Origin: Escherichia phage vB_EcoM_LNA2
DNA length: 64,000 bases
Sequence record: MZ311865.1
Strand: one strand, 5' to 3'
Part shown: one piece after another, positions 3,792 to 55,787 of the stretch
Layout of the letters: each line of letters begins with the position of its first letter
Numbering within the stretch: the first letter of the stretch is position 1
Translations under genes and position numbers: made by a program
The notes under the pieces: generated by a model
Seen by the model: the letters and a program-made list of their open reading frames with translations, nothing else
What the model was told of the DNA's origin: nothing
Database searches by the model: none

Positions 3792-4788
3792 TTCAAGTGT
3801 TATCTATCGTGCAATAGTTACATCAAAATTTAGAACAGAGAAAATGCTGAATTTTTATAATTCAGTTGGGGATGGAGATGATAAGAACTCCATTTATATT
3901 ACGTTTGGACGTTCAGAGCCTTGGGCGTCAAATGAAAATGAGGTGGGCTTCGCCCCACCTTATCCTACAGATTCTGTTCTTGGTGTTACTGATATGTGGA
4001 CCCATATGATGGGCACCGTTAAAGTTTTACCTTCAATGTTAGATTCTGTTATTCCTAGACGTGATTGGGGAGATGTGCGATATCCAGACCCTTACACGTT
4101 TAGAATTAACGATATAGTCGCATGTAATACTGCTCCGTACAACGCGACAGAAGTTGGAGCTGGTTGGTTAATTTACCGTTGTTTAGATGTCCCTGACGTA
4201 GGGCTCTGTTCAATAGAATCTTTAGATAATAAAGATGAATGTCTTAAATTGGGTGGTAAATGGACTCCGTCTGTTCGTTCTATGTCTCCTCCTGAAGGCA
4301 GAGGCGATGCTAATGGGGTTATCGAAACCGGTGATGGATATATTTGGGAATATCTTTATGAGATTCCTGCCGATGTGTCAATTAACCGTTGCACTAACGA
4401 ATATCTTGTAGTTCCATGGCCGGAAGAAATTAAAGAAGACCCCACCCGTTGGGGATATGAAAATAACTTAACTTGGCAACAAGATGACTACGGTTTGATT
4501 TACCGTGTTAAAGCTAATACGATGCGGTTTAAAGCATATTTTGATTCTGTTTATTTCCCTGAGGCAGCTTTGCCTGGTAACAAGGGTTTTAGACAGATAT
4601 CAATTATCGCAAACCCGTTAGAAGCTAAGAAAAATCCAAATGACCCTAATGTTAAAGCAGAAAAGGATTATTACGACCCTAGAGACCTGCAACGTCATTC
4701 TGGTGAAATGATTTATATGGAAAACCGACCACCTGTTATTATGGCAATGGACCAAACAGAAGAAATTAACATTTTGTTTATGTTTTAA
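3784..4788 (+). CDS. 8: Baseplate wedge protein gp8
   Basis: 334 aa, matches T4 gp8 length and position; followed by UUCG hairpin terminator. Confidence 0.93.
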   Translation: MNDSSVIYRAIVTSKFRTEKMLNFYNSVGDGDDKNSIYITFGRSEPWASNENEVGFAPPYPTDSVLGVTDMWTHMMGTVKVLPSMLDSVIPRRDWGDVRYPDPYTFRINDIVACNTAPYNATEVGAGWLIYRCLDVPDVGLCSIESLDNKDECLKLGGKWTPSVRSMSPPEGRGDANGVIETGDGYIWEYLYEIPADVSINRCTNEYLVVPWPEEIKEDPTRWGYENNLTWQQDDYGLIYRVKANTMRFKAYFDSVYFPEAALPGNKGFRQISIIANPLEAKKNPNDPNVKAEKDYYDPRDLQRHSGEMIYMENRPPVIMAMDQTEEINILFMF

Positions 4789-22588: not shown

Positions 22589-24157
22589 ATGACTACTATC
22601 AAAACTAAAGCTCAGCTCGTAGACAAATGGAAAGAACTGCTGGAAGGTGAAGGCCTGCCGGAAATCGCTAATAGCAAGCAGGCTATTATCGCTAAAATCT
22701 TCGAAAACCAGGAAAAAGATTTCGAAGTATCCCCTGAATATAAAGACGAGAAAATCGCTCAGGCATTTGGTTCTTTCTTGACCGAAGCTGAAATTGGTGG
22801 TGACCATGGTTATAATGCTCAGAACATCGCAGCAGGTCAAACCTCTGGTGCAGTAACCCAAATTGGGCCGGCAGTTATGGGTATGGTTCGTCGTGCTATT
22901 CCTAATCTGATCGCTTTTGATATTTGTGGTGTTCAGCCTATGAACAGCCCGACCGGTCAGGTATTTGCTCTCCGTGCAGTATATGGTAAAGACCCTATCG
23001 CTGCTGGCGCTAAAGAAGCTTTCCATCCGATGTATGCTCCAGATGCGATGTTCTCTGGTCAGGGTGCTGCTAAGAAATTCCCAGCTCTGGCTGCTGACAC
23101 TACTACTGTTGTAGGTGATATCTATACTCACTTCTTCCAAGAAACTGGTACTGTATATCTGCAAGCTTCTGCTGTCGTAACACTTGATTCTGGTGCAACT
23201 GATGCAGCTAAATTAGATGCAGAAGTTAAGAAACAAATGGAAGCTGGTGCACTGGTAGAAATCGCTGAAGGTATGGCTACTTCTATCGCTGAACTCCAGG
23301 AAGGTTTCAACGGTTCTACCGATAACCCATGGAATGAAATGGGCTTCCGTATCGATAAACAAGTTATCGAAGCTAAATCTCGCCAGCTGAAAGCTGCTTA
23401 CTCTATCGAATTAGCACAAGACCTCCGTGCAGTACACGGTATGGATGCTGATGCTGAACTGAGCGGTATTCTGGCTACAGAAATTATGCTAGAAATCAAC
23501 CGTGAAGTTGTTGATTGGATTAACTACTCAGCACAGGTCGGTAAATCTGGTATGACCCTGACTCCTGGTTCTAAAGCTGGTGTATTTGACTTCCAGGACC
23601 CGATTGATATCCGTGGTGCTCGTTGGGCCGGTGAAAGCTTTAAATCTCTGTTGTTCCAGATTGATAAAGAAGCAGTTGAAATTGCTCGTCAAACCGGCCG
23701 TGGTGAAGGTAACTTCATTATCGCTTCCCGTAACGTAGTTAACGTACTGGCTTCAGTTGATACTGGTATTTCTTACGCTGCACAGGGTCTGGCTTCTGGT
23801 TTTAATACCGACACTACTAAGTCTGTATTTGCCGGTGTACTTGGTGGTAAATACCGCGTATACATCGACCAGTATGCTAAACAGGATTACTTCACCGTTG
23901 GTTACAAAGGCGCTAACGAAATGGATGCAGGTATTTACTATGCTCCTTACGTTGCACTTACCCCACTGCGTGGTTCCGATCCTAAGAACTTCCAGCCGGT
24001 AATGGGCTTTAAAACTCGTTACGGTATCGGTGTTAACCCGTTTGCTGAAAGTTCCCTGCAGGCTCCAGGTGCTCGCATCCAGTCCGGTATGCCGTCTATC
24101 CTGAACAGCCTTGGTAAGAACGCTTACTTCCGCCGTGTATATGTAAAAGGCATCTAA
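22589..24157 (+). CDS. 23: Major capsid protein gp23
   Basis: 522 aa; T4 synteny; terminator hairpin downstream. Confidence 0.96.
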   Translation: MTTIKTKAQLVDKWKELLEGEGLPEIANSKQAIIAKIFENQEKDFEVSPEYKDEKIAQAFGSFLTEAEIGGDHGYNAQNIAAGQTSGAVTQIGPAVMGMVRRAIPNLIAFDICGVQPMNSPTGQVFALRAVYGKDPIAAGAKEAFHPMYAPDAMFSGQGAAKKFPALAADTTTVVGDIYTHFFQETGTVYLQASAVVTLDSGATDAAKLDAEVKKQMEAGALVEIAEGMATSIAELQEGFNGSTDNPWNEMGFRIDKQVIEAKSRQLKAAYSIELAQDLRAVHGMDADAELSGILATEIMLEINREVVDWINYSAQVGKSGMTLTPGSKAGVFDFQDPIDIRGARWAGESFKSLLFQIDKEAVEIARQTGRGEGNFIIASRNVVNVLASVDTGISYAAQGLASGFNTDTTKSVFAGVLGGKYRVYIDQYAKQDYFTVGYKGANEMDAGIYYAPYVALTPLRGSDPKNFQPVMGFKTRYGIGVNPFAESSLQAPGARIQSGMPSILNSLGKNAYFRRVYVKGI

Positions 24158-24181
24158 TCTTAATTGATTAAATCTTATTTT

Positions 24182-24206
24182 GGGAGACTTCGGTCTCCCA
24201 TTTTTG
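24182..24206. terminator. Bidirectional terminator between gene 23 and the convergent small early gene
   Basis: GGGAGAC-UUCG-GUCUCCC followed by TTTTTGGTTTT; lies between convergent stops. Confidence 0.8.
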
Positions 24207-24209
24207 GTT

Positions 24210-24479
24210 TTATTTCTGTGCAATTTTGATGTAAGTTTTCAAAATATTTTGCCAATTAGGCATACCTTCTTGGACATATGCCGGAGAACCGTCTTTGTTT
24301 TTGAATGATGCAAGTTTATCAGTGGCCCAATAACCTTTAGCTCGAGCTTCAGAATCAACTTTCATCCATACTTTGTTGAAGGCATTACCATTAACTTTTG
24401 CACTATATTTTTCTACTAACTTAACTGCTTCAGCTTCCAGAACTTTTAAAGTATCTCGTAAGAAACGTGCTTTAGTCAT
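24210..24479 (-). CDS. Hypothetical small protein, early gene embedded between capsid genes 23 and 24 (segD position in T4)
   Basis: 89 aa ORF with ATG, RBS AGGAG, own GTTTAC/-10 promoter upstream and a hairpin terminator downstream; no family recognised. Confidence 0.6.
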   Translation of the reverse strand: MTKARFLRDTLKVLEAEAVKLVEKYSAKVNGNAFNKVWMKVDSEARAKGYWATDKLASFKNKDGSPAYVQEGMPNWQNILKTYIKIAQK

Positions 24480-24509
24480 TTTGTTTACTCCTCTGTAGTT
24501 GATAAGTTT

Positions 24510-24539
24510 ATAGTATCACATACTAAATACGTTGTAAAC
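24510..24539 (-). promoter_or_regulatory. T4 early-type promoter for the small gene between 23 and 24
   Basis: Minus strand GTTTAC, 18 bp, TACTAT. Confidence 0.55.
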
Positions 24540-24545
24540 AATCTT

Positions 24546-24553
24546 TATAAATA
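24546..24553 (+). promoter_or_regulatory. Late promoter for gene 24
   Basis: Exact TATAAATA 27 bp before the gene 24 ATG. Confidence 0.7.
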
Positions 24554-24579
24554 ATCTATATCACATAAGGAAAAATGCA

Positions 24580-25863
24580 ATGAGTAAAATCCAAAAATTA
24601 TTGCGTGAATCTACAACGTCTACTAGCAACTCAATTGGTCGCCCAAATCTCGTTGCTTTGACTCGCGCTACGACTAAATTAATATATTCTGACATTGTAG
24701 CAACACAAAGAACTAATCAACCTGTTGCTGCTTTTTATGGTATCAAATATCTTAACCCAGATAACGAATTCACATTTAAAACTGGTGCTACTTATGCAGG
24801 CGAAGTTGGATATGTAGACCGAGAAAAAATTACCGAACTCACAGAAGAATCAAAAGTCACACTAAATAAAGGTGATTTTTTCAAATATAATAATATCGTC
24901 TATAAGGTGTTAGAAGATACACCATTTGCAGATATTCAAGAAAGTGATCTAGAATTAGCTCTTCAGATTGCAGTCGTTCATTTAAAGGTACGGTTATTTT
25001 CAGATGCAGCGGTAACAAGCAAATTTGAAAGCTCTGATAGCGAAATTTCTGATGCAAGATTCCAGATTAATAAATGGCAAACTTCAGTCAAATCTCGTAA
25101 ACTTAAAACTGGCCTCACGGTCGAATTAGCGCAAGATTTGGAAGCGAATGGATTTGATGCCCCTAACTTCTTAGAAGATTTGCTTGCTACTGAAATGGCC
25201 GATGAAATTAATAAAGATATTCTTCAGTCTTTAATTACTGTATCGAAACGTTATAAAGTTACTGGAATTACTGACACCGGATTTATTGACTTGAGTTATG
25301 CATCAGCTCCAGAAGCAGGTCGTTCATTATATCGAATGGTGTGTGAAATGGTATCACACATTCAAAAAGAGACAACTTATACTGCAACGTTTTGTGTAGC
25401 CTCAGCTCGTGCAGCTGCTATTCTTGCTGCTTCCGGTTGGTTAAAACATAAGCCAGAAGATGACAAGTATCTTTCACAAAATGCTTATGGATTCTTGGCA
25501 AATGGATTACCTCTTTACTGCGATACCAACAGCCCGTTAGATTATGTTATTGTGGGTGTTGTAGAAAATCTCGGCGAAAAAGAAATTGTAGGGTCCATCT
25601 TTTATGCTCCATACACTGAAGGAGTAGATTTAGATGACCCAGAACATGTTGGTGCATTTAAAGTTGTAGTTGATCCAGAAAGCTTGCAACCGTCTATCGG
25701 ATTATTGGTTAGATATGCTTTATCAGCAAATCCTTACACAGTAGCAAAAGATGAAAAAGAAGCGAGAATAATTGATGGCGGGGACATGGATAAAATGGCA
25801 GGACGTTCAGACTTGTCTGTTTTATTAGGTGTTAAACTACCAAAAATTATCATTGATGAATAA
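24580..25863 (+). CDS. 24: Capsid vertex protein gp24
   Basis: 427 aa, same as T4 gp24; late promoter upstream. Confidence 0.95.
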   Translation: MSKIQKLLRESTTSTSNSIGRPNLVALTRATTKLIYSDIVATQRTNQPVAAFYGIKYLNPDNEFTFKTGATYAGEVGYVDREKITELTEESKVTLNKGDFFKYNNIVYKVLEDTPFADIQESDLELALQIAVVHLKVRLFSDAAVTSKFESSDSEISDARFQINKWQTSVKSRKLKTGLTVELAQDLEANGFDAPNFLEDLLATEMADEINKDILQSLITVSKRYKVTGITDTGFIDLSYASAPEAGRSLYRMVCEMVSHIQKETTYTATFCVASARAAAILAASGWLKHKPEDDKYLSQNAYGFLANGLPLYCDTNSPLDYVIVGVVENLGEKEIVGSIFYAPYTEGVDLDDPEHVGAFKVVVDPESLQPSIGLLVRYALSANPYTVAKDEKEARIIDGGDMDKMAGRSDLSVLLGVKLPKIIIDE

Positions 25864-27265: not shown

Positions 27266-27468
27266 TTCTTCACCTTTTTGTTAATCAAACGTTTACGGTA
27301 TACAACTTTTTCTTTTGCTTTAAACTTTGACCGAGCTGTCTCGGCTTTAGTCCATAGTAATCCAACTTCTTTAGGTTGTAAACCGATTTTTTGAGCAATT
27401 TCTACGAATGAAAATCCCGCCTCATGTAATGTATAAACTTCAACCTCAGTTCTCATAATCAATCTCAT
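27262..27468 (-). CDS. Hypothetical small protein, possible helix-turn-helix DNA-binding protein
   Basis: 68 aa; central segment FSFVEIAQKIGLQPKEVG resembles an HTH; basic C-terminus. Confidence 0.55.
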   Translation of the reverse strand: MRLIMRTEVEVYTLHEAGFSFVEIAQKIGLQPKEVGLLWTKAETARSKFKAKEKVVYRKRLINKKVKK

Positions 27469-40130: not shown

Positions 40131-40160
40131 ATAGTATCACACATCCATGTGTTTGTAAAC
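40131..40160 (-). promoter_or_regulatory. Early-type promoter for the alt.-1-like gene
   Basis: Minus strand GTTTAC, 18 bp, TACTAT; about 30 bp upstream of the corrected ATG. Confidence 0.55.
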
Positions 40161-51041: not shown

Positions 51042-51071
51042 ATAGTATCACAACTCCACCATGTTGTAAAC
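51042..51071 (-). promoter_or_regulatory. Early-type promoter for the 78-aa ORF / DAHP synthase / cd transcription unit
   Basis: Minus strand GTTTAC, 18 bp, TACTAT; no other promoter motif seen before DAHP synthase. Confidence 0.5.
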
Positions 51072-53167: not shown

Positions 53168-53197
53168 ATTATACTCTGCTCCTGAGAGTTTGTAAAC
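53168..53197 (-). promoter_or_regulatory. Early-type promoter for the 99-aa ORF
   Basis: Minus strand GTTTAC, 18 bp, TATAAT; -10 sits in the loop of a GGAGCA/TGCTCC inverted repeat. Confidence 0.55.
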
Positions 53198-54573: not shown

Positions 54574-54603
54574 ATAGTAACACCATCCTTGGTGTTTGTA
54601 AAC
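54574..54603 (-). promoter_or_regulatory. Early-type promoter for alc
   Basis: Minus strand GTTTAC, 18 bp, TACTAT, about 30 bp before the alc ATG. Confidence 0.55.
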
Positions 54604-55757: not shown

Positions 55758-55787
55758 ATTGTACCACAATCCTTGTGGTGTGTAAAC
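55758..55787 (-). promoter_or_regulatory. Early-type promoter for rnlA
   Basis: Minus strand GTTTAC, 18 bp, TACAAT. Confidence 0.55.

Follow-up and report, generated by a model that had tools for sequence, protein, structure and literature searches.

What is a small gene doing between two capsid genes, on the opposite strand? The question is raised by Escherichia phage vB_EcoM_LNA2 (sequence record MZ311865.1), from which we analysed a stretch of 64,000 nucleotides (nt), referred to here as the window. Between gene 23 (major capsid protein) and gene 24 (capsid vertex protein), both late genes on the plus strand, a minus-strand open reading frame (ORF) of 89 amino acids (aa) was found, as claimed in a first-pass annotation made from the sequence alone. 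We consider the region an autonomous early transcription unit, lodged in the gene 23/24 slot of Mosigvirus and encoding an accessory host-takeover or counter-defence product, a reading that as a whole we put at slightly better than even. Its parts differ in strength: we are highly confident in the architecture of an early cassette, and the functional class of the product is offered tentatively, as something short of an even chance. The unit fits exactly into the interval that runs from the terminator of gene 23 to the late promoter of gene 24.

Genomes of Mosigvirus (RB69-like, Tevenvirinae), among them Shf125875, SA79RD, and APCEc01, share 99% identity with the surrounding region. The annotation itself is not new. 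More than 200 GenBank records list the 89-aa ORF as a 'hypothetical protein', and GenBank record OL960576 already marks the same coding sequence, early promoter, late promoter, and terminators. Literature searches by accession and by locus tag retrieved no publication.

An early transcription unit antisense to the capsid genes

Upstream of the ORF stands the hexamer GTTTAC (-35, 24539-24534), followed after 18 nt by TACTAT (-10, 24515-24510). In full, the site reads GTTTAC-AACGTATTTAGTAT-GTGATACTAT, in which GTGATACTAT is a T4-like extended -10 and GTGA precedes the -10 hexamer. It conforms to the T4 early consensus, GTTTAC-N14-gtggTAttaT (18 nt to TAnnnT), as quoted in the OL960576 annotation from Miller 2003, and a generic sigma-70 scan returned the same site as the pattern search. 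The early-type promoter of the first-pass annotation holds up well, as GTTTAC-N18-TANNNT is overrepresented in the window, with seven occurrences against 1.09 expected and none of 100 shuffles reaching seven. All seven lie on the minus strand; the GTGATACTAT -10 is common to three of them, the cassette site included. The early promoter is conserved in RB69, mogra, JS98, LF82-1, and L012, and transcription from it would start near 24503. The six further matches (27354-27383, 40131-40160, 51042-51071, 53168-53197, 54574-54603, and 55758-55787, all minus) may mark other early transcription units in the window.

The other expression signals proposed for this locus can be read from the sequence as well (Table 1). 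The ribosome-binding site is strong, and its Shine-Dalgarno motif is conserved in JS98 and LF82-1. The late promoter of gene 24, TATAAATA, belongs to a motif with 16 sites in the window, compared with 7.5 expected. It stands back-to-back with the early promoter, in divergent orientation and 6 nt beyond its -35 hexamer, where it occupies the position that an AT-rich UP element would have relative to the early promoter.

The 3' end is a different matter. The first-pass annotation described a bidirectional UUCG terminator, and this part of it did not survive. On the plus strand, the hairpin between gene 23 and the ORF has a UUCG loop and a U-tract (24201-24215) and forms the gene 23 intrinsic terminator. 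The stop codon of the ORF overlaps the U-tract. On the minus strand, the same hairpin has a CGAA loop followed by AAAAUAAGAUUU, with no U-tract, so that only one of the two transcripts carries the tract expected of an intrinsic terminator. A terminator scan found the plus-strand terminator and no minus-strand site. The hairpin, 10 nt beyond the stop codon, can nonetheless fold in the ORF transcript (-19 kcal/mol for a 76-nt segment, z = -6.0), where it may mark or stabilise the 3' end. It is conserved in RB32, KP179, and T4, and the gene 23 terminator is present in all six T4-like genomes studied by Nolan 2006 (PMC1524935).

Timing can be approached through T4, which carries the gene segD at this locus. 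In T4 omics supplements, segD is classed as early RNA and middle protein, with peptides detected by mass spectrometry (PMC9697503), and the antisense gene 23/24 slot is therefore expressed early at least in T4. Edgell 2010 (PMC2988022), by contrast, reported finding no promoter for segD. In T4 (NC_000866; L005, 5234-5323), we observed ATTTAC-N18-TATTAT upstream of segD. It stands back-to-back with the late promoter of gene 24, at the position homologous to that of the early promoter in the window.

Table 1. Coordinates of the cassette and of the genes on either side of it in the window.
Feature	Position	Strand	Basis
Gene 23 (major capsid protein), late gene upstream of cassette	22589-24157	+	Annotated so in 99% identical records
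GC-rich 8-bp hairpin	24181-24200	both	Terminator scan and folding of both strands
89-aa ORF between genes 23 and 24	24210-24479	-	Open reading frame, phrog_6003 match
Shine-Dalgarno GAGGAG	24493-24488	-	8 nt before ATG of 89-aa ORF
T4-type early (sigma-70) promoter of 89-aa ORF	24539-24510	-	Pattern match, generic sigma-70 scan
Late promoter TATAAATA of gene 24	24546-24553	+	Motif search, comparison, OL960576 annotation
Gene 24 (capsid vertex protein), late gene downstream of cassette	24580-25863	+	

Occupancy of the gene 23/24 slot

In RB32 and KP179 the slot is empty: the gene 23 UUCG hairpin is followed by about 15 nt and then by TATAAATA. The window has about 336 nt between the same two landmarks, and the cassette fills exactly that gap. 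The 89-aa protein is found by tblastn in 239 of 50,697 phage records, and it is absent from T4, RB32, and KP179. T4 has segD in the slot, as the first-pass annotation had stated, in the same position and on the minus strand, and phiR1-RT has a large homing endonuclease there. The check on related phages proposed in that annotation shows that the same ORF and endonucleases both occur at the locus. In 38 records, LF82-1 and IME08 among them, the ORF and a segD orthologue lie in tandem on the same strand behind one promoter, the orthologue being 57% identical to T4 SegD (E = 3e-86). About 200 of the 239 carriers, the window included, have the ORF without segD, and it is alone in the slot in the window, JS98, and VR20. 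Across the genomes compared, four states of the slot are documented: empty, ORF, ORF with segD, and segD.

The cassette is thus polymorphic in presence among collinear relatives and, like a moron-type accessory unit, it sits within a foreign operon and is equipped with a promoter and a hairpin of its own. The proposal of a self-contained early cassette in a plasticity hotspot, which can be extended to the entire family (see below), is well supported by this layout, which fits the empty-site gap, and by segD, the ORF with segD, and another endonuclease as alternative contents. The word 'inserted' needs qualification: the ORF is syntenic across Mosigvirus, Dhakavirus, and Gaprivervirus, which makes it an old resident of the slot in those genera and no newcomer. 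The divergent copies of JS98 (Dhakavirus) and VR20 (Gaprivervirus) occupy this slot too, on the strand opposite to that of the flanking genes 23 and 24, as do metagenomic intermediates at 60-70% identity.

The ORF is dispensable, given its absence from T4, RB32, and KP179 and its frameshifted state in RB69 and mogra. In the RB69 reference (NC_004928; L020, 5292-5532), a deletion and an insertion of 1 bp each, separated by about 150 nt, divide it into ORF188c and ORF189c, and the mogra copy (L004, 2001-2269) has a 1-bp deletion in a T-run. Promoter, Shine-Dalgarno, and hairpin are intact in both frameshifted copies.

The position between genes 23 and 24 might also suggest a capsid-assembly or virion accessory protein, as might a faint, non-significant match (E = 0.054) to a PHROG family labelled 'internal virion protein'. 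We consider this extremely improbable. The promoter is of the early type and the ORF lies on the strand opposite to the late genes; T4, RB32, and KP179 lack the ORF despite near-identical capsid genes, and homologs elsewhere lie among early, replication, or accessory genes.

Since T4 has segD in the same position and orientation, and phiR1-RT another homing endonuclease, the ORF could be the degenerate remnant of such a gene, whether segD or another of the GIY-YIG or HNH type; the first-pass annotation named this outcome as one that would overturn it. A BLASTP comparison of the ORF with SegD gave one 17-residue match (18.5 bits, E = 0.022 for a single comparison), which is not significant. The two genes occur intact side by side in the 38 tandem records, the ORF shows selective constraint and a confident compact fold of its own (see below), and the family is found in phages with no endonuclease nearby. 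Neither a GIY-YIG nor an HNH Pfam match was obtained, and a SegD-like GIY-YIG identity was set aside for want of any Pfam domain or SegD similarity. With coexistence and no similarity to SegD, we reject the remnant explanation, whose probability we regard as negligible. The earlier statement that the protein has no endonuclease motifs and belongs to no recognised family stands: it has no SegD similarity and falls in no curated family, and the profile that it does match has no known function.

The T4 segD locus is among the closest precedents for the arrangement. Both loci have the intergenic slot, the antisense orientation, and the gene 23 UUCG hairpin downstream, together with a promoter-like element back-to-back with the late promoter (ATTTAC-N18-TATTAT in T4, GTTTAC-N18-TACTAT in the window). 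They differ in their products, 89 aa in the window compared with the 223 aa of SegD, with no GIY-YIG domain and no similarity in the former. As the two stand side by side in 38 phages, the ORF and segD are not alternatives to each other.

Replacement of the cassette between genera

LF82-1 (PV648359; L016, 2440-3560) offers a view of how the slot changes hands. Compared with the window, it is 97-100% identical across gene 23 up to about 24085 and mostly 92-99% identical in gene 24, where two 100-nt bins fall to 84-86%. Across the ORF, the identity of LF82-1 is 46-60% with the window and 88-95% with JS98, and segD is present as well. This profile indicates that about 1 kb, comprising the ORF allele and segD, has taken the place of the window-type cassette of 0.39 kb, the backbone being otherwise identical. 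The right junction is the shared Shine-Dalgarno, as seen by comparison with IME08, a Dhakavirus that has the ORF and segD. On the left, the junction is within the final nine codons of gene 23, which are recoded synonymously so that the peptide still reads YFRRVYVKGI. The same combination of a Mosigvirus capsid backbone, a Dhakavirus-type ORF allele, and segD (window 24130-24495) was observed in LF82-1, F2, ATK47, and JK45.

This exchange bears on the possibility that the protein serves the SegD element, either as cargo that hitch-hikes by co-conversion or as a modulator of, or protector against, SegD cleavage. The tandem same-strand pair behind one promoter in 38 records would suit such a role. 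So would the LF82-1 patch, which holds both genes and whose left junction at the end of gene 23 fits a co-conversion tract. However, about 200 of the 239 carriers lack segD, T4 has segD without the ORF, and homologs occur in non-T4 phages with no endonuclease partner, so we consider a SegD helper or hitch-hiker improbable.

A closed family with a confident fold

The tblastn matches divide into about 119 records at 90% identity or more, one at 79% (the frameshifted mogra copy), and 119 at 30-37%. Between ORF copies, the ratio of nonsynonymous to synonymous substitution rates (dN/dS, pairwise Nei-Gojobori) is 0.04-0.39, and it is 0.13 for the unsaturated JS98/LF82-1 pair. Family members are 83-93 aa long, and F6, N30-G31-N32, N35, and Q70 are invariant down to about 30% identity. 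These patterns of substitution identify the 89-aa ORF as a real coding gene under purifying selection.

They also bear on whether the early RNA, rather than a protein, is what functions here. An antisense transcript could run into gene 23 or disturb the late promoter of gene 24 and so time capsid expression; the early -35 hexamer is 6 nt from the divergent late promoter, and read-through antisense to gene 23 is possible with no minus-strand U-tract to end transcription. Against this, protein sequence, length, and motifs are kept at about 30% identity while synonymous sites are saturated, and the same protein occurs with no capsid genes nearby. The phages with an empty slot, RB32 and KP179, manage genes 23 and 24 without the cassette, and an Rfam scan of the cassette region gave nothing above gathering scores. 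A functional antisense RNA is, in our view, very improbable.

The protein matches phrog_6003 (PHROGs v4, unknown function) over its full length, with E = 1.4e-44 for residues 1-89 of 90 profile positions, and all 22 aligned relatives match the same profile. AlphaFold2, run on a 22-sequence alignment, predicted a helix (3-25), a second helix (31-48), a beta-hairpin (52-60/66-70), and a third helix (76-88), with a predicted local distance difference test (pLDDT) score of 94.5, a predicted template modelling (pTM) score of 0.80, and all five models above 91. The isoelectric point (pI) is 9.8 in the window protein and 9.2-9.9 in 21 of the 22 family members, and all 22 are hydrophilic. The window protein has a grand average of hydropathy (GRAVY) of -0.56 and no signal peptide or transmembrane segment.

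Searches beyond the family returned little. Word-indexed homology searches of 5.8 billion proteins reached saturation over three rounds, at about 25 clusters, and turned up no genuine fusion. In Pfam, the only match was to DUF4859 (PF16151), below threshold (19.1 bits, E = 0.0013, against a gathering threshold of 22.6 bits) and seen in two of the 11 family members tested, which does not support membership. NCBIfam and PADLOC searches gave nothing but noise, PDB sequence profile searches with two alignments gave no match below E = 0.06, and Foldseek against BFVD recovered a family member and no informative structural neighbour. Among known anti-defence proteins of solved structure, no characterised inhibitor resembled the window protein in sequence or fold, and the family hidden Markov model (HMM) found no paralog elsewhere in the window. 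The proposed structure and homology check thus gave a confident fold and no informative homolog or neighbour. On this basis phrog_6003 is a closed sequence and structural orphan family.

Searched exhaustively with HMMER, 1.84 billion representatives yielded seven matches, one of them outside the family. This sole outsider, P0013, is a 655-aa metagenomic protein in which a cytochrome b5-like repeat occurs six times. In each repeat, the initial 30 or so residues are similar to residues 41-70 of the family profile, with five matches to a 30-residue motif, and P0013 shares a motif of about 25 residues (W.T.KLA.Y.GK.G.PAY...) with the helix 2 and beta-hairpin region of phrog_6003. A relationship to the Cyt-b5-like domain (PF00173, ~74 residues) was considered and rejected, as the resemblance is at motif level and no family member matches PF00173. 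Also rejected was P0030 (160 aa) as a fusion: it comes from a 701-bp contig that looks chimeric and joins an oxidoreductase-like N-terminus to a fragment of a JS98-type allele. P0006, a 90-aa family member, carries the name 'NADPH-dependent curcumin reductase CurA' from the Joint Genome Institute (JGI), an evident misannotation.

The family extends beyond T4-like phages. Members were found in the Vequintavirinae record ABPH49, in 35-63-kb contigs with long arrays of small same-strand genes, beside primase and helicase genes in a contig related to 48-kb Klebsiella phages, and beside a tail-tip gene in a contig related to Serratia siphophages. All of these copies have a Shine-Dalgarno and, downstream, a GC-rich hairpin. 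A promoter-like element can be identified in most, and in the two smaller-phage contigs a terminator also lies just upstream of the ORF. The layout of an accessory unit was observed at homologs in three phage backgrounds besides that of the window. No co-travelling partner gene was found across the phage backgrounds. This distribution shows that phrog_6003 is shared horizontally, as a single-gene unit, among unrelated lytic Enterobacterales phages. In the contig that carries P0009 (L010), the sole megablast matches are short ones of 85-89% to 84-kb Erwinia phages, within about 93 nt (4657-4749).

Possible role of the product

How might such a gene work? Host sigma-70 RNA polymerase would transcribe the ORF in the first minutes of infection, from near 24503, and the transcript would end at, or be stabilised by, the hairpin. 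Genes 23 and 24 would be transcribed later from the opposite strand, so that early and late programmes would not collide. The product, a small, soluble, basic protein predicted to fold into three helices and a beta-hairpin, has no catalytic motif and would most likely act stoichiometrically, binding host nucleic acid or an acidic host protein. It would be a dispensable accessory factor whose value differs from one host strain to another, and this would account for its patchy distribution, for allele replacement, and for occasional loss. The host-interaction or counter-defence role suggested in the first-pass annotation is plausible, a fair guess from the early promoter, dispensability, horizontal spread, and allele replacement.

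A broader version of this proposal, which we regard as doubtful, would make phrog_6003 an unrecognised early counter-defence or host-takeover family with a new fold, a plug-in cassette of T4-like, Vequintavirinae-like, and smaller Klebsiella- and Serratia-type phages. An arms race with a host target that varies among strains would then lie behind the exchange of one deeply divergent allele for another (~32% identity) while the capsid backbone stayed nearly identical.

Several points weigh against an early host-takeover or counter-defence cassette. The literature search found no expression dataset for Mosigvirus or Dhakavirus, and the PhageExpressionAtlas paper makes no mention of RB69, Mosigvirus, Dhakavirus, JS98, T4-like, or Tevenvirinae. 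The early-protein screen in AV110 picked homologs of T4 early proteins, and the ORF, having no T4 homolog, would fall outside it. Because the minus strand has no canonical terminator, the 3' end of the ORF transcript is uncertain. The frameshifted copies of RB69 and mogra may be true pseudogenes, or their indels may stem from errors in sequencing, and it is the second possibility that counts here. No homology or fold link to any characterised protein backs a binding or anti-defence role, and a basic pI is weak evidence for nucleic-acid binding.

The same features could instead describe a factor in competition between phages, or in superinfection exclusion, directed at co-infecting relatives. 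Probable early expression, dispensability, and the replacement of alleles between co-infecting genera would all be in keeping with this, as would the link to a homing endonuclease slot, where phage-phage conflict plays out. The T4 proteins Imm and Sp are membrane or periplasm associated, and the window protein is unlike them in its hydrophilicity and in having neither a signal peptide nor a transmembrane segment. We give this alternative a poor chance.

Comparison with known systems and significance

The cassette is an uncharacterised accessory unit of the moron type in the known segD slot. It shares with phage morons the single gene with its own promoter and hairpin in a foreign operon, presence/absence polymorphism, and horizontal sharing. 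The term moron classically refers to genes of temperate phages that the prophage expresses, whereas the carriers with identifiable relatives here are of the lytic type and the promoter is of the early lytic class. In RB69, 13 of 57 predicted early promoters lie upstream of novel ORFs with no T4 orthologues (Nolan 2006, PMC1524935), a description that the cassette fits. It differs from most of those operons, which are clustered and co-oriented with their neighbours, in being single and antisense within the late head-gene block, and in RB69 itself the reference copy of its ORF is frameshifted. T-even phages have small early proteins for host takeover or anti-defence, such as MotB, and Emp (Gp94) in Mosigvirus AV110. 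These too are nonessential, with folds of no known function, but no sequence or structural relation to phrog_6003 was detected.

The locus is a clean example of a single-gene early cassette in the gene 23/24 hotspot. Its clearest new points are the slot with four states, the inter-genus replacement sharply mapped to junctions at the Shine-Dalgarno and the last nine codons of gene 23, and the orphan family, which is closed and has a confident fold. Being tiny, without structural relatives, and spread across unrelated Enterobacterales phages, phrog_6003 is a cheap and well-defined candidate for screens of anti-defence or host-takeover activity. Identification of a target would add it to the lengthening list of small phage effectors and would leave the view of T4-like genomes unchanged.

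Additional observations at the locus

We looked for flanking repeats that would indicate transposition around the cassette and found only a 28-nt inverted repeat and a 9-mer direct repeat. The first is imperfect, 75% complementary, and brackets the cassette at 24200-24227 and 24571-24598. The second, TATCACATA, occurs once in the early -10 region (24514-24522) and once just downstream of the late promoter (24559-24567). Both are probably due to chance in AT-rich DNA.

Beyond gene 24, the window continues with rnlB on the minus strand. Gene 24 itself varies among the relatives, being single in the window, T4, and RB32 and present as two tandem copies (24a and 24b) in Dhakavirus, Gaprivervirus, and Kanagawavirus; these were seen in JS98 (L002, 335-2899), VR20 (L003, 330-2894), CIP9 (L007, 464-3026), and L021 (837-3401). 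Finally, the 142-kb record PV654520.1 ('Pseudomonas phage vB_PSGBLB0006') encodes a gp24 that is 95% identical to that of the window, like E. coli Tequatrovirus records, which is unexpected given its listed host, P. aeruginosa.

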